A stretch of 57,952 nt of DNA from Promethearchaeota archaeon (GCA_048938005.1 JBHLMQ010000014.1:1-57952); one strand, 5' to 3'; positions 25,983 to 35,943 are shown, numbered from the stretch's first letter. The notes: generated by a model not told the origin, from the sequence alone. Program-made: numbers and translations.

Positions 25983-27221
25983 ATGACATCAGAAGTTTCT
26001 AATTTAATAAAACTCTTTTCAAAATTCTTAGACCCAAAATCCGCTAAAATTGATAAATTAAAAGAGATAGATGATATCCTAAAATTACCTCTTCACTCCT
26101 ACAAATTCATTGACAAAGAAGAATCAACAATGATAAAGCAATTATTAGAAATTTCTACAATAGCTGATGCTTCTAAAAAAAATAAGGATAATCCCTTACA
26201 AAGTTTAATTGAGATTGAAGAAACAGATGATTCGATTGATCTAGCGATAAGTTTACAGAAAAAAATTGAAGAACTCAAGGCAAAATATCCAACTTTCGAG
26301 ACAAAATTAAAGAAAACTATAACAATTAGTTCACTTATCGCAAGCATTAAGGAAGAAAAAGAAGGAATCGAGGCTAAAGGTCAAAAAGTTCTTGTGTGCG
26401 GATTAGACGCAGCGGGTAAAACCACATTACTATCCAAATTTGGGGGACGTTTAGGAATCAGTGATATGATATCAACACATCCAACAAAAGGAGTAGTCCG
26501 GATGAAGTTTGGGAGTACGAATTTGAACTTATTTATTTGGGATTTAGGCGGTCAAGAGGAATATAGAGAACGATATTTAAATAATCCCGAGCAATATTTT
26601 ATTCAATTAGATTTACTTCTTTATGTAATTGATGTCCAAGATCCAGATAGATTTGATGAGTCTTTAGAATATTTTGATAAAATTCTTGATTCAATAATAA
26701 TGTTAGAAGAAAACCCCTATATATTAGTTTTTTTGCATAAAGTTGATCCTGAATTGAAAAATGAGCCTAAGATACTCCTAAATATTGAGCTCTTAAAGGA
26801 TCATATAACTGAACTCTTAAAAAGCAAGGATTTCAATTTTGATATAGAAATGTATCTAACATCTATATATTCCCTAATATCACGTGAACCTCAATTCGCT
26901 AAATATGTAAAAAATTTAATGAGTGCGAGTCATTCTTTAACAGATCCAACAGTTCGAAAAGTGGAAGGACTTGGAAAAACTTTAGAAGAAACGTTGAATG
27001 CTGTAATTCGCTTATCAGAGAGTATTTCTTCACAACTCAATGATCTTGATAATCGTCTTCGAGCTATTGAGTCAGGAGCATTTCAAGTTGCTCAAAGTGG
27101 AATCCCTATTGAAATTGCTAATCCAAATCAACCTTCTGCTAGACCTCAAGAAAATGCGAGACTAAATGTCCTAAATGAATTAAAAGATCTATTCAGTAAA
27201 AGGAAACGTTTAGATCTTTAA
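25983..27221 (+). CDS. Arf/Rag-like small GTPase with N-terminal extension and C-terminal coiled coil
   Basis: GLDAAGKT, PTKG, WDLGGQ, HKVD, TSIY; heptad-like LEETLNAVIRLSESISSQLNDLDNRLRAIE. Confidence 0.88.
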   Translation: MTSEVSNLIKLFSKFLDPKSAKIDKLKEIDDILKLPLHSYKFIDKEESTMIKQLLEISTIADASKKNKDNPLQSLIEIEETDDSIDLAISLQKKIEELKAKYPTFETKLKKTITISSLIASIKEEKEGIEAKGQKVLVCGLDAAGKTTLLSKFGGRLGISDMISTHPTKGVVRMKFGSTNLNLFIWDLGGQEEYRERYLNNPEQYFIQLDLLLYVIDVQDPDRFDESLEYFDKILDSIIMLEENPYILVFLHKVDPELKNEPKILLNIELLKDHITELLKSKDFNFDIEMYLTSIYSLISREPQFAKYVKNLMSASHSLTDPTVRKVEGLGKTLEETLNAVIRLSESISSQLNDLDNRLRAIESGAFQVAQSGIPIEIANPNQPSARPQENARLNVLNELKDLFSKRKRLDL

Positions 27222-27222
27222 T

Positions 27223-27963
27223 TTATTTCCTTTTTTTTAAATGATCAATAATCCTTTTATAGAAAGCGAGTAAAACAATCACAGTAAAAATTACTAAACA
27301 TATAATTAAATACCAAACATTTTCATACAACAGAGAATTTATCCGTCTATATTGGATTTCATAGATTACATTTTGTTCAATTAAAGTCAATACCTCAAGT
27401 ATCAATGGAGCTATTAAATAAGTTGAAATAAAGAAACCAGCTACTCCAAAAATATAACCACAGATAACGTCAGTAGGGTAGTGCACACCAAGTTGAATTC
27501 TTGAAAATGAGACAAAAATAGCTAATACTAAAATTAAGATTGTAATCCAAGGTGATCTTAAAAAAGTCAGCCCAATCACCAATCCTTCAGACACAACATT
27601 ATAAGAATGCCAAGAGGGGAAACTCCTTGAAGTTGGTTTTCGTTCAAAAACAATGATTTTACTATCATTAAATCTTTCAAAGGGCCTTGATCTTTTAACA
27701 ATTTGTTTAATTGATAATACTAAAATCACTCCCGTTAGAAATGTTGCCGAAATATAGGATAATAAAAATGGATCATACCAAATTAGTAAATAAAAAGCAA
27801 TTAAGAAAATCCACAATGTTTCTCTTCCAAAAAAGGAAATAAATCTAAAAAAGTATATTGTAATTTTCCCACCTAACCCATTATATCTTAAAATAATTTT
27901 CTGGTCCCAATTATCTATTCTTTTTGAGATGACTTTAAAATCCATCATATCACTATTTTTCAA
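27223..27963 (-). CDS. PAP2-family membrane phosphatase
   Basis: K..VKRSRP, SFPSWH, SRIQLGVHYPTD motifs with TM helices. Confidence 0.9.
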   Translation of the reverse strand: MKNSDMMDFKVISKRIDNWDQKIILRYNGLGGKITIYFFRFISFFGRETLWIFLIAFYLLIWYDPFLLSYISATFLTGVILVLSIKQIVKRSRPFERFNDSKIIVFERKPTSRSFPSWHSYNVVSEGLVIGLTFLRSPWITILILVLAIFVSFSRIQLGVHYPTDVICGYIFGVAGFFISTYLIAPLILEVLTLIEQNVIYEIQYRRINSLLYENVWYLIICLVIFTVIVLLAFYKRIIDHLKKRK

Positions 27964-27966
27964 TTC

Positions 27967-28761
27967 TTAGGTTAATTCAAAAAGAGAATATGCTTTTTTT
28001 ACATATGGTATTTGCTCTTCAAAATATTCTAATTGATGTGAATCAGATCCTACAAAAAATGTAGCCCCCTTCTTCTTCAATTGAAGAATTACATCTTTGG
28101 ATGGAAAAGCACGTTTTATTGGAAATCTAAATCCAGATAAATTGTACTCTATTCTAATTTTATTCTTAATACATAGACGGCCAAGGTTTAATACGCGATC
28201 ATCTGATGTATCACAATCATTTCGAGGTTTAAGATCATTTTTATTGATATAACGAAAAATAGTGTCAATATGGCATACATTTTTAAAAATTTTTGAATTA
28301 ATCATTTTTTCACTAATTTTAAAATATTCATCGATAATCAGCTTCATTGGCTTTCTTTCTAAAAATTTTATTAAACCCTCTCTTGTTGTAACAGGATATC
28401 CAATGATCCACTCATGGATCGAACCTCCTATAAAATCTAATTCTTTCTCATAATCATCCATAAACTCCATTAATTGAATTTCTTTATCCTCATAATATTC
28501 AACTTCCAAACCACTGAGTATGAAATCATAAGTCTCCTTTAATTCATCAATCTCTTCAAGATAGTCATTAATTTTACCGTTATAAAATGGATTAGTCTTA
28601 TCATTTTCCACATAATGAAGTTCATAATGATCAAGAAAACAGATATTAATTTGATGCTCTTCTGCTACTTTTATATAATCTTCAAACGTAGGACCGTCTT
28701 GTCCTACATCTACGCTCCAATATTTACTATGAAGATGAAAATCTGTAAATTTAAATCTCAT
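27967..28761 (-). CDS. PHP-family phosphoesterase (histidinol-phosphatase HisK-like)
   Basis: DFHLHS, DH, GLEVEY, GSIH, CHID, GSDSH. Confidence 0.85.
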   Translation of the reverse strand: MRFKFTDFHLHSKYWSVDVGQDGPTFEDYIKVAEEHQINICFLDHYELHYVENDKTNPFYNGKINDYLEEIDELKETYDFILSGLEVEYYEDKEIQLMEFMDDYEKELDFIGGSIHEWIIGYPVTTREGLIKFLERKPMKLIIDEYFKISEKMINSKIFKNVCHIDTIFRYINKNDLKPRNDCDTSDDRVLNLGRLCIKNKIRIEYNLSGFRFPIKRAFPSKDVILQLKKKGATFFVGSDSHQLEYFEEQIPYVKKAYSLFELT

Positions 28762-28810: not shown

Positions 28811-30700
28811 TCAACTAATTGAATCTTCTTTATCAAAATACACTCTATAAAATAATTCCTTTTCCCCTACTTCAGGGGGAGTTATCTTAGTATAACCTCC
28901 CTTATGAATAACACGAATAGTCTCTTTGTTTTGAATATGTATATTCCCATAAAATCCTTTAATACCTTTTTCTTTAGCGATAATGATTATATGTTGATAT
29001 AGAAATGTACCTATACCCTTTCCTCTATAATCTTCCCTAACTAAAAAGCTATATTCTGCCATATTCATTTCAGGATTTAAATAATAGGTTGCACTACCTA
29101 TCATTTCTTGCTTACCAATTTCCCCTATAAATGCTCCTAGAGAGAAAACATTATCATAATCAATATTTACTTCGCTCTGAGTTTTTGAGTGCGTAAATTC
29201 TTTTCTAAGCTCAAAAAATCGTAAATATCTATCTCTCTCATTTAATGAGTAATATAATTCTTTAAGTGCTTGTTCATCTGTAGTTTTAACAGGTCGAATA
29301 TTAATTTTTTCTTTATCTCTCGTCATGTAAATAGTTTCATATTCTGAAGGGTATAAACAAATTCGACCATTCTCATCACAAGGAAGCATCTGATCAGAAA
29401 ATATATAATTTAATTTTTTCGCTTCATCCAATAATGATTGCCGGAATTTGGGGTGAGCTATACAAATCAATTCAAGCACTCTTTCACGAATTGTTTTACC
29501 ATGAAGGTATGCCACACCCCATTCAGTTACAACATAATGAACATCTCCACGGGATAACATTATTCCTGCTCCTTCATCTAAATGTGCTACAATTCGGGAT
29601 TTTTCTCCATCTCTAGATGTTGATGGCATTATTATTATAGGCTTTCCTCCTTTAGAAAATGCAGCTCCTCTCATAAAATCTATAGTTTCTCCTAATCCTG
29701 AATAAAAATGATAACCCTCAGTTGCAGCATTTACCTGTCCAGTTAAATCGATTTGTCGTGCAGAATTGATCGAGACCATTTTCTTATTCATTCCGATGTA
29801 TATAGGATTACAAATATAATCCGATGGAAAAAATTCTATATAGGGATTGTTATCTACAAAATCATATAATTTTTTCGTTCCTAAAGCAAAACTAGTAAGA
29901 ATTTTCTCTGGATGGAAATTTTTTTTTCTACAAGTTAAAATCCCTCCTTCAATAAGTGGTATTATATTATCTGTAATATAATGAGAATGCATTCCAAGAT
30001 CCTTCTTATCTTTTAGAAATTTTAAGACCACATTTGGTAAATCACCAAAACCTATATGAATGGTGGATTTATTTTCTATTAAATTTACTAGATTTTTACC
30101 AATTCGTTTAGCAATTTCATCAGGCTCATCAAAAATAAATTCTAATAACGATGTATCATTATAGACAAAAAAATCAATTTCTTTCATATGGATAAAACTA
30201 TTTCCTAAAGTTCGCGGCATTTGTGGGTTAATTTCTACAATAGTTATATAAGATGATTGAGCTATTGGCTTTGCAATATCTACATTAATCCCTAAAGAGC
30301 AAAAACCATAAGGATCAGGGGGAGTAGCCTGTATAAGGGCAACATCGACATGTTTCCTACCTGTTTTAAATAAAGATGGAATTTCACTGCTAAAAATAGG
30401 TGTATAGTCTGCTTGCCCTTTATTAATTTCCTCTCTAAGAGTTTTTCCTATAAAAAATGCATTATGCCTAAATAAGTCTTCTGCCTTATCCTTAAAGTAT
30501 TTTTCTGGTCCTATAGTTAAAAAGTGAAGTATTTCAGTATCAACTAATTTCTCTGAATGCTTAATCAATTCTGATGTTAATAACTGTGGTTCTGAACATC
30601 CAGAATCAATAAAAACTCTATTCCCAGGAATGATTTTATTAATTGCTTCCTCTGCTGTTATTTCCTTTTCCTTCCACTTTTCTCTCCAATCTTCCTTCAT
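28811..30700 (-). CDS. Acetyl-CoA hydrolase/CoA-transferase-like domains fused to C-terminal GNAT (Pat-like protein acetyltransferase)
   Basis: ADYTPIF, DVALIQATPPD.YGFCSLG, SINSARQIDLTGQV, VHYVVTEWGVAYLHGK, IAHPKFR; GNAT IRPV...D...RYLRFF and VREDYRGKGIGT. Confidence 0.9.
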   Translation of the reverse strand: MKEDWREKWKEKEITAEEAINKIIPGNRVFIDSGCSEPQLLTSELIKHSEKLVDTEILHFLTIGPEKYFKDKAEDLFRHNAFFIGKTLREEINKGQADYTPIFSSEIPSLFKTGRKHVDVALIQATPPDPYGFCSLGINVDIAKPIAQSSYITIVEINPQMPRTLGNSFIHMKEIDFFVYNDTSLLEFIFDEPDEIAKRIGKNLVNLIENKSTIHIGFGDLPNVVLKFLKDKKDLGMHSHYITDNIIPLIEGGILTCRKKNFHPEKILTSFALGTKKLYDFVDNNPYIEFFPSDYICNPIYIGMNKKMVSINSARQIDLTGQVNAATEGYHFYSGLGETIDFMRGAAFSKGGKPIIIMPSTSRDGEKSRIVAHLDEGAGIMLSRGDVHYVVTEWGVAYLHGKTIRERVLELICIAHPKFRQSLLDEAKKLNYIFSDQMLPCDENGRICLYPSEYETIYMTRDKEKINIRPVKTTDEQALKELYYSLNERDRYLRFFELRKEFTHSKTQSEVNIDYDNVFSLGAFIGEIGKQEMIGSATYYLNPEMNMAEYSFLVREDYRGKGIGTFLYQHIIIIAKEKGIKGFYGNIHIQNKETIRVIHKGGYTKITPPEVGEKELFYRVYFDKEDSIS

Positions 30701-30960
30701 AAATCAGATTTCACTATTATTTATGTTAAAATCTTTATTTTTTAATTATAAATATAATCTACAGTCTCTTTATTAATTGTATTTTCATCAATATAATGTT
30801 TTTGAAATTATAAATAAAATGTTTAAATTTTATATACATCTTTTTTGAATTAGAATTATCCGCTATGAACTAATAATTTTAAATGTAAATAATTTAAAAA
30901 AAACCAAAAATATAGATTTATAAACTTATAAAATTAAGAAATTAAAAATAGTGAAATATA

Positions 30961-32940
30961 ATGTCAAAAGAAGAAAGAATGGAAAGTATTCTTACTGAGA
31001 CCCGTATTTTTAATCCCGTCGATCTTAATCCTGATTATGCTAAAACTGGAATGACTATGAAAGAATATCAAAAACTATACAAACAATCTATAGAAGATAT
31101 GGAAAGTTTTTGGGATGAACAGGCAAAATCAATTGATTGGTTCAAACCGTATGATAAAGTCTGGGAAAAAACTGAGTTATTTCCTGGTAAATGGTTTGTT
31201 GGTGGAAAACTCAATGTTAGCTATAACGCGATCGACAGACACGTCAAAGCAGGAAAAGGAGGAAAAATTGCTTTGATTTGGGAAGCAGATGAACCTGGAA
31301 ATGTACGAACTTTTACTTATAACGAACTTTTAAAAGAAGTCAGTAGAGTTGCTAATGGAATGAAAAAGTTAGGATTGAAAAAAGGAGATCGGGTTACAAT
31401 TTGGCTACCTATGGTTCCTGAACTAGCTATAATTATGTTAGCTTGTGCTCGAATAGGTGTTATTCATTCAATTGTTTTCGGTGGATTTTCAAAAGAGGCC
31501 GTTAAAGATAGAATTGAAGACTCTAATTCTCGTCTTCTATTCACAAGCGATGAAACATTAAGAGCTGGGAAATATTATCCTAAAATGGCCGATGTCGTCC
31601 AAATTATTGATGATGTTCCTACTATTGAACATGTTATTGTTGTCAAGCGCTCTGGAAGAGAAATACCTCATACGGATAAAGATATCTGGTATCATGATTT
31701 CATAGATGGTATGAGTGAAGAATGTGAACCTGAAATAATGGATTCTGAAGATACATTGTTCATTTTATATACAAGTGGAACAACTGGAAAGCCAAAAGGA
31801 GTAAAACATACTACAGCGGGATATATACTTTATACCTCATTCACTCATAGAGTTGTATTCAATTATCATGAGGGAGATATTTGGTATTGTACTGCTGATA
31901 TTGGATGGATCACCGGGCATTCTTATATTGTTTATGGACCATTAACCAATGGAGCAACTTCCTTAATGTTTGAAGGAGTTCCAACCTATCCTGATGTTGA
32001 TCGCTTCTGGGACATTGTTGAACGTCATAAAGTTACTCATTTCTATACAGCTCCTACTGCAATACGCGCCTTAATGAGATATGGAGAAGAACCTGTGAAT
32101 AAACATGATTTAAGTTCATTAAAGGTACTTGGAACCGTTGGTGAGCCAATAAATCCAGAAGCTTGGACATGGTATCACCGCGTAATAGGTAAAGAACGTT
32201 GCCCAATAGTAGATACCTATTGGCAAACAGAAACTGGAGGCTTTATTATGACTCCAATTGCAACAGCAACTCCAACAAAGCCAGGATCCTGTTGTATGCC
32301 CTTTTTAGGTGTAAAACCAGTCATATTCGACCTAGAGGGGGATGAGGTGACAGAACCAGATGAAGGTGGATATTTTGCCATGGGACAACCATGGCCAGGT
32401 ATGTTAAGAGATGTTTGGGGCGATACAGAGAGATTTAAATCAACCTATCTCGAAAGATATCCAGGATATTATTATACTGGTGATGGAGCTCGACGAGATG
32501 AAGATGGATATTACTGGATACTTGGAAGACTAGATGATGTAATAAAAGTTTCTGGCCACAGAATCGGAACTATGGAAGTAGAATCTGCTCTTGTAAGCCA
32601 TCCTAAAGTTGCTGAGGCTGCTGTTGCTCCTTTTCCTCATAAAATTAAAGGTCAAGCAATTTGGGCATTTATTACATTAATTCAAGGCGTTGAAAAATCA
32701 GCAAAATTATCTAAGGAGATAAGAATGCATGTTAGACAAGAAATTGGTCCAGTTTTTCAACCAGATGTAATTCAATTTGCTGATGACTTACCTAAAACTC
32801 GAAGTGGAAAGATAATGCGTAGAATTTTGAAAGCAATTGCTTCTGGAACCCCTCTTGGTAATATCACTACTTTAGCTAATCCTGAAATTGTGGATAAATT
32901 GATTGAAGAACGGAAAAAAATGGATATTGAAGTAGGTTAA
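30961..32940 (+). CDS. acs: Acetyl-CoA synthetase (AMP-forming)
   Basis: YTSGTTGKPKG, TADIGWITGHSY, VGEPINP, DTYWQTETGG, SGHRIGTMEVESAL, PKTRSGKIMRR. Confidence 0.97.
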   Translation: MSKEERMESILTETRIFNPVDLNPDYAKTGMTMKEYQKLYKQSIEDMESFWDEQAKSIDWFKPYDKVWEKTELFPGKWFVGGKLNVSYNAIDRHVKAGKGGKIALIWEADEPGNVRTFTYNELLKEVSRVANGMKKLGLKKGDRVTIWLPMVPELAIIMLACARIGVIHSIVFGGFSKEAVKDRIEDSNSRLLFTSDETLRAGKYYPKMADVVQIIDDVPTIEHVIVVKRSGREIPHTDKDIWYHDFIDGMSEECEPEIMDSEDTLFILYTSGTTGKPKGVKHTTAGYILYTSFTHRVVFNYHEGDIWYCTADIGWITGHSYIVYGPLTNGATSLMFEGVPTYPDVDRFWDIVERHKVTHFYTAPTAIRALMRYGEEPVNKHDLSSLKVLGTVGEPINPEAWTWYHRVIGKERCPIVDTYWQTETGGFIMTPIATATPTKPGSCCMPFLGVKPVIFDLEGDEVTEPDEGGYFAMGQPWPGMLRDVWGDTERFKSTYLERYPGYYYTGDGARRDEDGYYWILGRLDDVIKVSGHRIGTMEVESALVSHPKVAEAAVAPFPHKIKGQAIWAFITLIQGVEKSAKLSKEIRMHVRQEIGPVFQPDVIQFADDLPKTRSGKIMRRILKAIASGTPLGNITTLANPEIVDKLIEERKKMDIEVG

Positions 32941-33004: not shown

Positions 33005-34894
33005 TTAATCCTTGGAAAAATCCTTATCTTCTTTTGAAAATTTCTTAGGTTTTTCTGAGATTTTAAAACCAAATTCTTGTTCTTCTTTAATAGGAATTAT
33101 GGGTTTTAAGGCATCTATCGGAGCATTACACACCCAACACGCGTTTTCTAAATTAGTTAACGTTTGGGCACAATTATTGCAGTAGATCGAATTGCATTCT
33201 GGACATATGTAAATATTAAATCGTTCAACTTCACCTTTACACACTAAACAACTTTTTTTCTCTTTATGAACTGTAACTTTTTCTTCTATCGTTTGACGGG
33301 TAAATTTTTTCTCTAGTACCTCATTTATGGCTTTTGTTACATACCTTTTTAAATTTAAAAACTCAATTTTTTCTTGTAATTTAGAATTACGAATAAATAA
33401 AGCTCTCCATTCCTCTAATTGATTGAAAAGTTGATTTTGCTGGGCTGTTAATTTTTTTGAAATCAACTCTAATCCTTTATTTTCGGCAATTTTGAGAGCT
33501 TTAGTTAATAATTTTCGTGAAAGCTCAGCATTTCCCTCAATTAGAGCCAATTTTGCTTGGAGTGAATAAGCATCAATTAAAGTGGTAATAGAACGTTGTT
33601 TAGTAGCGATATCAGAGATTTTATTAATTAAATCTTGAATTTCTAATAATATTTCTTCTTCTCCAGAATATTTTAATTCTTCTAATAATAAATCACACAG
33701 ATTTACTTGGACCATAAATTCAAATAGATAATCAAATTTTACTTCAAGTATTTCTTCTAAAATTTGCTGTGCTTGAAATCGATATTTTGCTCGCTGTTTA
33801 TTTTTTAATATTAAAGCCTTACTAAATTTCTTGAATATATTAGTCCAAGGCCACTTACGAGCAAATTTAGTAAGTTCCTCCATTGAATCATCAATTTCTT
33901 TAAAATCATCAATTTCTATGGCCGATTGAATCAATAATAAATAAAACATAAGAAGATCGTAATCAAATATGGTATTATTCAATTCACATAACGATTTATG
34001 TGCTTTTATCGCTTCTCTAAGGTATTCAATTGATTTTTTTATTTTGTTTTTATAATAGTATATCCATCCAATATTTCTAAGAGTATAGCAATAACTATGT
34101 GCTACGCTCTGTTTAATACCTAAATTTTCATTATAAATAGTCAAAACTTTACGATAATATTCTAAACTTTTATCAAATTCGCCCCTTCCACGATAAATTG
34201 AACCAAAAATAGAATACACAAATGCAAGCCCCCTTAAATGTTTCAACTTTTCATAAAGTATTAAACTCTCTTGGGCATATTCTGTTGCTTGATCTAAGTC
34301 TCCTTTATAGAAATTCATAAATGATATTAAAAATTTTGCTTGTGCGATGTATCTTTCATCGTGAATTTTTTCAGCAAGATTAAGCATTTTATGGGAATAA
34401 ATCAACGCTTCATCCAATTTACCTTGAGCTCGTTTAATCCAACAAATTGCTTCAAGCTGGTGGAATATAGATTTCTTTTTGTTCAAAGTTTCGTAAATTT
34501 CTATGCTACGATGGTAGTTAACAATAGCATCTTCAAGCTCCCCTTGAGCAGATTGAATAGCGCCTTTTATAGAAAATAATCTGCCGATTCCATCTTGTAC
34601 AAGGGAATTTTCTTTATTATTATTATCCATTTGGCTTATAATTTGTTCAGTAAGCTTAATTTCTTCATTAACTTTATCATACTTTTTTAATGCCACTAAG
34701 GCTATTAATCTTGTTATTCGTGCACCAAAATTTTGGTTTAAGTTTAATTGGGTTGTTCTTTCATCTAGAATATCGTTAGTTATTGATAGAACTTTATCAA
34801 ACGCCCTCGTTTTTAATAAAGTTAAGCACTTTAAAATTAGCTTATCAATATTCTCTAGTTGTTGAGATTGCTTATCCTTCTTCACTTTCCTCAA
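33005..34894 (-). CDS. TPR-repeat protein with C-terminal 8-Cys RING-like zinc finger
   Basis: Several TPRs (e.g. GSIYRGRGEFDKSLEYYRKVL); C-terminal CLVC-x11-CPEC-x4-CNNC-x10-CWVC. Confidence 0.85.
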   Translation of the reverse strand: MRKVKKDKQSQQLENIDKLILKCLTLLKTRAFDKVLSITNDILDERTTQLNLNQNFGARITRLIALVALKKYDKVNEEIKLTEQIISQMDNNNKENSLVQDGIGRLFSIKGAIQSAQGELEDAIVNYHRSIEIYETLNKKKSIFHQLEAICWIKRAQGKLDEALIYSHKMLNLAEKIHDERYIAQAKFLISFMNFYKGDLDQATEYAQESLILYEKLKHLRGLAFVYSIFGSIYRGRGEFDKSLEYYRKVLTIYNENLGIKQSVAHSYCYTLRNIGWIYYYKNKIKKSIEYLREAIKAHKSLCELNNTIFDYDLLMFYLLLIQSAIEIDDFKEIDDSMEELTKFARKWPWTNIFKKFSKALILKNKQRAKYRFQAQQILEEILEVKFDYLFEFMVQVNLCDLLLEELKYSGEEEILLEIQDLINKISDIATKQRSITTLIDAYSLQAKLALIEGNAELSRKLLTKALKIAENKGLELISKKLTAQQNQLFNQLEEWRALFIRNSKLQEKIEFLNLKRYVTKAINEVLEKKFTRQTIEEKVTVHKEKKSCLVCKGEVERFNIYICPECNSIYCNNCAQTLTNLENACWVCNAPIDALKPIIPIKEEQEFGFKISEKPKKFSKEDKDFSKD

Positions 34895-35100: not shown

Positions 35101-35943
35101 TTAACCTTTTGCATAAGTACTAATAGCATATAACAAATCTAATCTTTCTGAAATTATTTTTCCGTATGTCATCTTTAAGCTCCCTTGATTCTCGTGTTTG
35201 GTTAGTTTAATTGATTCAAATATTTTTTTTTGTAACTGTTGATGTTCAGCAATAATTAAATGATTAGCGCCTAATGTTATACTCTTATTAATTATCTGTA
35301 GCGCAGCATCTAAATTTGTTGCTATTAATGGGCCAAGGCGCAAATTTGAGATTAGTCCATATCCTTCATTCTCAATCGCTAAAATCTTAGCACCAAGATT
35401 AATTCTCACTTGTAAATACTTGGATCGATCAAATCCCATGGCTTTCTTATCAAGGATTAACGCCCAATCTGGAAATATGTTCAAAACCTTAATCTGTTTT
35501 ATTTCAACATTTAATTCAGGTATCTGTATTGGCAAATTATACATCGTCCCAAAAAAACTTCCTTGAAAACCGAATTTTTTATAAATTGGTTTTCCTAATT
35601 TTGAAGCATAAAGTACCATGGTTTGATAGTTTAAATCTTTTCCAATTTCAAATAGTTCATTGAAAATCTCCGCACCCACCCCCATTCCTCTGTATTCTGG
35701 CAATACTCCCATATATCCGAAGCTACAAATTCCTTTAAATAAAAAGATTCCTCCAATGCCAATAATTTTTCCTTTTAGTTCAGAAATAAGAAATTTACCT
35801 ATCTCATTTTTGATCAGAGATTTCCATACTTTCGCTTCTTTTTTAATAGTCATAGATGGAACCCTCCCAAATGCAGAGTATAGCACATTAATACATTCAG
35901 ATATTTCTTTATCTTTTGGTTCTCTGATATTATGATTTATCAT
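35101..35943 (-). CDS. GNAT-family N-acetyltransferase (YitH-like, two-domain)
   Basis: MGVLPEYRGMGVG, LYASKLGKPIYKKFGF, D...GFDRS, LGPLIA. Confidence 0.85.
   Translation of the reverse strand: MINHNIREPKDKEISECINVLYSAFGRVPSMTIKKEAKVWKSLIKNEIGKFLISELKGKIIGIGGIFLFKGICSFGYMGVLPEYRGMGVGAEIFNELFEIGKDLNYQTMVLYASKLGKPIYKKFGFQGSFFGTMYNLPIQIPELNVEIKQIKVLNIFPDWALILDKKAMGFDRSKYLQVRINLGAKILAIENEGYGLISNLRLGPLIATNLDAALQIINKSITLGANHLIIAEHQQLQKKIFESIKLTKHENQGSLKMTYGKIISERLDLLYAISTYAKG

Follow-up and report, generated by a model that had tools for sequence, protein, structure and literature searches.

The subject here is a gene at 28811..30700 on the minus strand of a 57,952-nt stretch of DNA from a Promethearchaeota archaeon (GCA_048938005.1 JBHLMQ010000014.1:1-57952; the whole stretch is referred to as the window, and the assembly from which it comes has 3.72 Mb in 101 contigs and is 95% complete). 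Its 629-aa product joins a class I coenzyme A (CoA)-transferase-like domain, in which the catalytic center has been replaced, to a Gcn5-related N-acetyltransferase (GNAT) of the kind found in the Pat protein acetyltransferases. Open reading frame calling places it in a divergent pair with a 659-aa acs gene, for AMP-forming acetyl-CoA synthetase (Acs), on the plus strand at 30961..32940, the two being separated by a spacer of 260 bp (30701..30960). Domain make-up, loss of transferase residues, retention of GNAT residues and synteny are all matters of observation. The reading we favor, at a probability of roughly 0.55, is of a Pat-like switch in which the GNAT would acetylate Lys617 of Acs and the former CoA-transferase domain would regulate it, likely by binding CoA or acyl-CoA; of the two parts, the acetylation of Acs is likelier than the sensing of acyl-CoA.

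The CoA-transferase-like domain comprises residues 1-435 (29396..30700, minus strand). Matches to AcetylCoA_hydro (PF02550, residues 5-183, 4.8e-29) and AcetylCoA_hyd_C (PF13336, residues 274-427, 3.9e-59) together give it the two-domain fold of the AcetylCoA_hydro / 4-hydroxybutyrate CoA-transferase family, and phmmer alignments to solved 4-hydroxybutyrate CoA-transferases span residues 4-436 with E-values from 2.6e-114 (9vag) to 3.3e-96. Followed residue by residue, the alignments to 9vag, 3eh7, 2oas and 3gk7 (E-values 2.6e-114 to 1.2e-97) have dlG[iv]H[st]E and sG.GGQ.DF in each solved enzyme where the window protein has DLGMHSH, with His240 (codon 29981..29983) opposite Glu in 4/4, and GLGETIDF (29675..29698), in which Glu338 and Thr339 stand in place of the GQ of GGQ. 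Counting along 3gk7 puts the aligned Glu at residue 238, which we take to be the published catalytic Glu of AbfT. A preliminary description of this DNA, made from its sequence alone, had reported both substitutions and the position of the His codon, and was exact in each respect. The score against the butyryl-CoA:acetate CoA-transferase equivalog TIGR03948 (butyr_acet_CoA) is 252 bits, well short of its cut-off of 674.8.

Is His240 a one-off, or a sequencing error? For comparison, the window protein and its 120 best homologues, which are 75-91% identical and named by their sources as Lokiarchaeota, Promethearchaeota and Hod-, Thor- and Hermodarchaeota, were set beside 59 relatives that keep both the Glu and the GGQ. 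Neither explanation is tenable, since none of the 121 clade members has Glu at position 240, 116 having His, four Tyr and one Leu. Among 84 positions conserved at 80% or more in the 59 active relatives, 76 are retained in the clade and 8 are changed. Besides Glu240 to His, the changes are Gln215 to His (codon 30056..30058; Gln in 57/59 active relatives, His in 121/121 clade members), Asn297 to Cys (codon 29810..29812; Asn in 56/59, Cys in 121/121), Gly338 to Glu or Asp (Gly in 59/59; Glu in 62 and Asp in 59 of the 121), Gln339 to Thr (120, with Ser in one), Asp210 to Asn, Gly211 to Lys and Ile221 to Leu. In AarC of Acetobacter aceti the nucleophile is Glu294, the carboxamide of Asn347 both provides the internal oxyanion hole and holds the Glu in position, and the glycine of the external oxyanion hole, Gly388, is described as strictly conserved across the superfamily (PMC4876117); motif order and approximate offsets suggest that Glu294, Gly388 and Asn347 correspond to positions 240, 338 and 297 here.

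As the nucleophile Glu, the GGQ loop of the external oxyanion hole and the conserved Asn have all been replaced, the canonical glutamyl-CoA chemistry appears to have been lost from the domain throughout the clade. The domain is nevertheless still selected, under a constraint equal to that on the GNAT, with mean column conservation in the clade of 0.86 in each part. The 'apparently dead' of the preliminary description needs qualification: it stands for the canonical chemistry, and it misses a center that, with His215 and Cys297 invariant and position 338 always acidic, looks to have been rebuilt rather than merely to have died.

At the other end of the protein the picture is one of retention. 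The Pat-type GNAT region comprises residues 449-629 (28814..29356, minus strand), with Pfam matches to Acetyltransf_1 (PF00583, residues 503-600, 1.4e-11) and Acetyltransf_3 (PF13302, residues 466-603). Its best solved relatives by phmmer are the GNAT of Streptomyces lividans PatA (4nxy, 2.1e-15, then 4u5y, 3.7e-15), followed by PatZ (9it0/9isq, 1.7e-13), Sulfolobus Pat (3f8k, 3.4e-08) and Mycobacterium tuberculosis Pat (4orf, 3.2e-06), so that the earlier assignment to the Pat type was well founded. Glu549 (codon 29054-29056) aligns with the catalytic E809 of PatZ and E123 of PatA, Arg494 and Phe496 of the R494-F495-F496 motif align with R754 and F756 of PatZ, and RGKGIG at residues 559-564 (29009-29026), which conforms to the P-loop pattern Q/R-x-x-G-x-G/A, aligns with the PatZ/PatA loop. 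Each of R754A, F756A and E809A abolishes the activity of PatZ, the P-loop of which includes G822-G824 (PMC12184503). By these residues the GNAT is predicted to be competent. The hallmark of type I and II Pat enzymes, a regulatory domain resembling an NDP-forming acyl-CoA synthetase, is absent, the N-terminal domain being instead a CoA-transferase homologue.

The presumed substrate is in every respect of score and motif a typical AMP-forming acetyl-CoA synthetase. The acs product scores 983 bits against NF001208 (cut-off 657) and 952 bits against TIGR02188 (cut-off 725), and it is the sole full-score Acs in the assembly, the best of 17 further AMP-forming relatives being 31% identical. Its PKTRSGKIMRR motif, residues 611-621 (32791..32823), containing the presumed target Lys617 (32809-32811), does not vary in 21/21 aligned orthologues; both the intact motif and the head-to-head arrangement with the fusion gene had been noted at the outset. 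The whole fusion protein and residues 522-659 of Acs (the C-terminal domain) were modeled as a complex, from alignments of 88 and 21 rows respectively, in three runs with three controls. The runs gave ipSAE values of 0.67, 0.66 and 0.66, with 0.00 for the best control, the mark for this score being one attained by 116/157 solved complexes and 2/215 mismatched pairs. At least 87% of contacts are common to the runs, and the predicted local confidence (pLDDT) of the partner is at least 86. The residue pairs of lowest predicted error set Lys617 against Arg494, Phe495 and Phe496 (extending to residue 497), Glu549-Tyr551 and residue 586, and the model thus places the Acs lysine in the catalytic pocket of the GNAT.

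How faithfully do the two genes travel together? A scan for orthologues, taking one genome per species and locating neighbors by tblastn with the window genes, gave 61 loci at 76-96% identity, all in Asgard (Promethearchaeota-type) metagenome-assembled genomes except for one contig titled Nanopelagicaceae. Within 6 kb upstream and on the opposite strand, acs is present in 46/61, and as 11 of the 15 misses have less than 400 bp of upstream sequence, this amounts to 46/50 informative loci. Fusion and acs lie less than 500 bp apart in 26 of these loci; another 11 have gaps of 0.7-1.5 kb and the remaining 9 gaps of 1.8-5.8 kb. Two of the wider gaps were inspected (L028 and L035), and their inserts are unrelated small genes. 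On its other side the fusion gene is followed, 49 nt downstream, by a gene at 27967..28761 (-) for a 264-aa HisJ-like PHP-family phosphoesterase and this, after 3 nt, by one at 27223..27963 (-) for a 246-aa PAP2-family membrane phosphatase (PF01569, 2.5e-18). The PHP product has no Pfam match at 0.01, and its assignment is based on a phmmer match to the Thermus thermophilus histidinol phosphatase 2yxo (9.9e-06). The order fusion-PHP-PAP2 is kept for PHP in 60/61 loci and for PAP2 in 57/61, with every miss at a contig end. A sample of 400 genomes from the phylum gave 113 matches to the fusion, at 69-100% identity and one per genome, confined to the window's own Asgard family (112/134 of its other genomes); other families have only relatives at ~50% identity. 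Internal TAA flags in five orthologues were considered, and in the three inspected the codon is the ordinary stop at the end of the gene. The sequencing runs listed for this DNA comprise 20 DNA data sets from 8 studies, with no RNA data set among them.

The acs link appears to go with the Glu-less clade, since the intact-site relatives that were checked do not lie beside acs. One of these is in the same genome: on contig 17 (L006:913-2829, minus strand) there is a second CoA-transferase-GNAT fusion, of 638 aa and ~50% identical to the window protein, and it, like a stand-alone CoA-transferase of 429 aa (L005:1483-2772), keeps DLG.HSE and G.GGQVDF. The neighborhood of the intact-site paralogue has an HhH-GPD glycosylase, TatD, a radical SAM protein, a TetR regulator and others, with no acyl-CoA ligase among them, and three intact-site loci of a sister family have histidine kinases, an MFS transporter, a small GNAT and a NOG1-like GTPase, with no AMP-forming ligase.

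The wider family proves to be large. When 1.8 billion cluster representatives were searched exhaustively and without a profile, many fusions of 600-650 aa emerged at 30-52% identity. Counted over the best 150 rows, less 15 that are truncated or gapped at the site, Glu is absent from 30/71 fusion representatives (Asp in 14, other residues in 16) versus 13/64 stand-alone enzymes, and 10 of those 13 form a single clade of ~425-aa proteins with Gly at the Glu position. (Members of the Gly clade are P0223, P0226, P0234, P0239, P0244, P0246, P0249, P0250, P0261 and P0271; in their loop GG is kept in 10/10 and the full GGQ in 8/10.) A FastTree phylogeny of the transferase domain has the window clade as sister to a cluster with Phe at the Glu position, with Glu-containing fusions next, the paralogue from the same genome among them, and by parsimony the Glu state must have changed at least 17 times in the family, a rough figure that derives from one midpoint-rooted tree lacking branch supports. 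To judge from these relatives, the CoA-transferase-GNAT fusion is old and widespread with many members still having the Glu, what is peculiar to the clade is the loss of Glu combined with a position beside acs, and the pattern is what one would expect if attachment to a GNAT relaxes the catalytic constraint on an enzyme domain. Two relatives of ~960 aa, P0125 and P0128, have N-terminal 4Fe-4S ferredoxin-type motifs, with Val and Gln respectively in place of the Glu.

Two other long representatives, P0157 and P0171, have a histone-deacetylase domain (PF00850) after the GNAT, with E-values of 1.1e-79 and 2.7e-85. Searching with one such deacetylase fusion gave PF00850 after the GNAT in 120/120 of the matches listed, these being proteins of ~1000 aa with an AcuC-like deacetylase domain, the few named sources of which are Deltaproteobacteria, Myxococcota, Aminicenantes, Planctomycetes and one Thermoplasmatota bin. 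Of the 120 listed, 108 have Asp in place of the transferase Glu and 116 have His at position 215; their GGQ loop is degenerate, and the GNAT has its Glu in 107 and Asp in 13. As this branch joins a writer and an eraser in one chain, it suggests that the CoA-transferase-GNAT module works on proteins and acetyl-lysine, and it provides the strongest indirect argument for a protein-directed module. What, then, of the fusions with an intact site? A Thermus CoA-transferase is reported to be regulated by acetylation (10.1101/2025.10.31.685773), and the GNAT of intact-site fusions might conceivably acetylate its own transferase domain.

In the switch that we favor, the C-terminal GNAT would be a working enzyme that passes acetyl from acetyl-CoA to Lys617 of the adjacent Acs. 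The N-terminal 435 residues would be a former class I CoA-transferase, unable to form the glutamyl-CoA intermediate, with its fold kept as a regulatory and scaffolding module that most likely binds CoA or acyl-CoA. Acetylation of the motif-A10 lysine blocks adenylation in bacterial Acs. Abundant acetyl-CoA, or a different CoA species to which the N-terminal domain responds, would hence lead to acetylation of Lys617 and so to the turning off of acetate activation when acetyl-CoA is plentiful. The locus has no deacetylase gene, and reversal would fall to a sirtuin or histone deacetylase (HDAC)-type enzyme from elsewhere in the genome, where candidate erasers are present: SIR2 is matched at 4 places and Hist_deacetyl at 5, of which two share a frame. 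Every biochemical step, be it acetylation of Acs, ligand binding or allostery, is inferred. The preliminary description had proposed a pseudo-CoA-transferase sensor controlling Acs, a reading that the present results support in part.

Several findings weigh against this switch, or against parts of it. At four informative loci (L020, L021, L034 and L059, with 1.1-5.2 kb of upstream sequence) acs was not found, and in 20 of the 46 loci that do have it the pair is interrupted by a stretch of 0.7-5.8 kb with variable genes. The link of the fusion gene to PHP and PAP2 is tighter than that to acs, which counts against a purely Acs-dedicated role. The 17 other AMP-forming ligase relatives in the genome are possible alternative targets. 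At 47.3 bits the score against the mycobacterial Pat equivalog NF058543 is far below the cut-off of 460, and the fusion is thus Pat-like but outside that equivalog family. The complex of the PatA GNAT with Salmonella enterica Acs has been solved, as PDB 4U5Y (PMC12184503), and as 4u5y ranks second among the solved relatives of the GNAT, the success of the model may reflect likeness to that complex rather than binding of the present pair. Its confident interface consists of GNAT residues 488-617 with none from the CoA-transferase-like domain, so that the model does not tie that domain to the choice of substrate. Lastly, the invariant His215 and Cys297 and the acid at 338 could reflect a newly acquired activity instead of passive sensing.

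Some of these findings are what would be expected of a general protein acetyltransferase, whose many targets might include the other AMP-forming ligases, further metabolic enzymes or chromatin proteins, and for which the ex-CoA-transferase would be an oligomerization scaffold only and the adjacency of acs a matter of history. The 17 further relatives of the ANL family, the interrupted or missing acs and a modeled Acs touched by the GNAT alone would all suit such an enzyme; the substrates of PatZ are diverse (PMC12184503), and the tailed histones of Asgard archaea are acetylated by GNATs, though by small ones and not by the present fusion (bioRxiv 10.64898/2026.07.02.735847). However, acs is still the divergent upstream neighbor in 46/50 informative loci among orthologues as little as 76% and at most 96% identical, the checked intact-site relatives have no acs-type neighbor, and there is no reason for a mere scaffold to keep His215 and Cys297 unchanged where the active site used to be, with the result that we consider general acetylation rather unlikely. 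A quite different role would be acetylation of a small molecule, the gene working with PHP and PAP2 in a lipid, CoA or nucleotide-related pathway to which acs would supply acetyl-CoA. The compactness of fusion-PHP-PAP2 (60 and 57 of 61 loci; gaps of 49 nt and 3 nt) is in its favor, GNATs are functionally diverse, and the weak NCBIfam matches of the fusion include small-molecule acetyltransferases (ArsN1, 8.6e-06). Against it, the GNAT is by a wide margin closest to Pat-group protein acetyltransferases and has the R-F-F motif specific to Pat, one branch of the family carries a lysine-deacetylase domain and the modeled complex with Acs passed its controls; taken together these make the small-molecule role very improbable.

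The remaining alternatives concern the rebuilt center. The N-terminal domain may still be an enzyme, Cys297, His215/His240 and Glu/Asp338 running a new acyl-CoA reaction (thioester hydrolysis, acyl transfer via the cysteine, or catalysis with a relocated carboxylate nucleophile) in what would be a bifunctional protein. In its favor, His215 and Cys297 are present in 121/121 and 338 is always acidic, where active enzymes have Gln, Asn and Gly, and other fusions that have lost the Glu most often have Asp there (14 of the 30 Glu-less representatives and 108 of the 120 deacetylase fusions listed). Mack and Buckel are said to have found in 1997 that a Glu-to-Asp change made glutaconate CoA-transferase an acyl-CoA hydrolase, which would be a further point for continued catalysis. 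By homology positions 215, 297 and 338 would surround the thioester, but the residue replaced at 338 is the external oxyanion-hole glycine of which strict conservation in the superfamily has been stated (PMC4876117). Moreover Glu and Asp interchange freely at 338 (62/59), and 240 is also Tyr or Leu, and Phe in the sister cluster, variation that would be unusual for a precisely placed nucleophile or base, and an enzymatic role is on balance improbable. A proposal lying between sensor and enzyme is that the former thioester site has been converted, Cys297, His215, the acid at 338, His238 and usually His240 forming a Cys-His-acid triad or a metal/thiol site that would gate the GNAT by a covalent readout of the acyl-CoA:CoA pool. 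Self-acylation, a mixed disulfide with CoA or metal-dependent binding could each serve, at the very place where the CoA sulfur and the acyl carbonyl sit in active enzymes. We regard this conversion as speculative and doubtful, and it is put forward in a tentative spirit.

Where does the Pat-like switch stand among systems already known? With Pat/PatZ (YfiQ) of S. enterica and Escherichia coli (9it0/9isq) the fusion has in common the C-terminal Pat-type GNAT (1.7e-13), with counterparts of E809, R754/F756 and the P-loop, a large N-terminal domain that derives from an enzyme of CoA-thioester metabolism and has lost catalysis, and Acs as the target, presumed in the present case. The inactive acyl-CoA-synthetase-like domain of Pat/PatZ binds acetyl-CoA and controls the GNAT allosterically (PMC8556138, PMC12184503). 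Unlike Pat/PatZ, the fusion has a class I CoA-transferase (AcetylCoA_hydro) rather than an NDP-forming acyl-CoA synthetase-like domain in the putative regulatory position, and it is archaeal (Asgard). S. lividans PatA, the closest solved relative of the GNAT, has E123 for Glu549, and the modeled contact with Acs, in which the lysine occupies the active site, is similar to that of the solved complex; the domain order of PatA, however, is reversed and its partner domain is acyl-CoA-synthetase-like. In Bacillus subtilis the acetyltransferase and deacetylase for the acsA product are encoded by acuABC, and acsA itself lies upstream of that operon in reverse orientation (PMC11255334). There, as here, acs is transcribed away from the acetyltransferase gene, and the counterpart of AcuC is the AcuC-like deacetylase domain within bacterial relatives of the fusion, but AcuA is a small stand-alone GNAT and the present locus is without a deacetylase gene.

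Residues 4-436 have their fold and family in common with AbfT of Clostridium aminobutyricum (3gk7/3qdq), 9vag, 3eh7 and AarC of A. aceti (4eu3), from all of which the fusion differs in the replaced nucleophile Glu, GGQ loop and Asn and in the attached GNAT; given these replacements, the glutamyl-CoA mechanism of the AarC type (PMC4876117) should be unable to run in it. In principle there is also a likeness to type III Pat (the cAMP-GNAT of M. tuberculosis and Mycobacterium smegmatis, ACT-GNAT and NADP-GNAT), in which an N-terminal metabolite-binding domain precedes a C-terminal Pat-type GNAT (PMC8556138), although the putative sensor of the fusion has a different fold. The regulatory domains given for Types I to IV are acyl-CoA-synthetase-like, cAMP-binding, amino-acid-binding (ACT) or NADP-binding, or there is none (PMC8556138), and the work on PatZ employs these representative types as well (PMC12184503). 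A CoA-transferase-derived module is not among the regulatory domain types in the available portions of PMC8556138 or PMC12184503, the term 'CoA transferase' occurring once in the text of the former and nowhere in that of the latter, and in the open-access literature, with subscription journals and supplements lying outside this scope, no description of a CoA-transferase-GNAT protein was found. What is already known, as a principle, is a GNAT with a metabolite-related domain beside acs; what is new is the CoA-transferase-derived module, its pseudo-enzyme origin and its spread.

The surroundings of the locus deserve some mention. Convergent with the PAP2 gene, at 25983-27221 (+), is a gene for a 412-aa small GTPase (Gtr1/RagA, 2.9e-22; Arf, 1.2e-21) with an extra ~130 aa at its N-terminus and a C-terminal extension, and this Arf/RagA-like GTPase is syntenic in 54/61 loci. 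At L031, the contig titled Candidatus Nanopelagicaceae bacterium, the orthologue is 85% identical and the PHP-PAP2-GTPase order is kept; it is probably a mis-binned Asgard contig. Beyond acs are a gene for a 629-aa TPR protein at 33005-34894 (-), with a weak C-terminal RING/C1-like cysteine-rich finger that falls below Pfam cut-offs, and one for a 280-aa two-domain GNAT (Acetyltransf_7 and Acetyltransf_18) at 35101-35943 (-); synteny of these two genes is patchy only.

The spacer between fusion and acs is AT-rich, and alignment of 13 spacers revealed a conserved block at ~30746-30857 within which there is a 37-nt core (30793-30829) that includes a TATA-like TTATAAATA between two AATGTTT repeats. 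The core is identical in 14 loci and has five or fewer mismatches in 17/61. Its distance to the ATG of the fusion gene is always 93-102 nt, and that to the ATG of acs varies from 96 to 163 nt. It may be a site for a shared regulator, and a search of the spacer against Rfam gave no match at E up to 1.

In bacteria, the reversible acetylation of Acs is the standard example of how lysine acetylation controls metabolism. To our knowledge very little is known of such control of Acs in archaea, and for the Asgard archaea, among which the eukaryotes are believed to have their origin, nothing at all. A regulatory module derived from a CoA-transferase would add a further class to the regulatory domains recognized in acetyltransferases. 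Beyond this, the coexistence of intact-site and Glu-less paralogues in one genome, the changes of Glu state, at least 17 in number, and the bacterial branch that combines writer and eraser in a single polypeptide constitute a natural experiment, and one that makes directly testable the question of how an enzyme becomes a sensor. Should the former thioester site indeed have been converted to a new readout, then, together with the intact-site and deacetylase fusions, it would point to a large unrecognized class of acetylation switches built on CoA-transferase chemistry in both archaea and bacteria.

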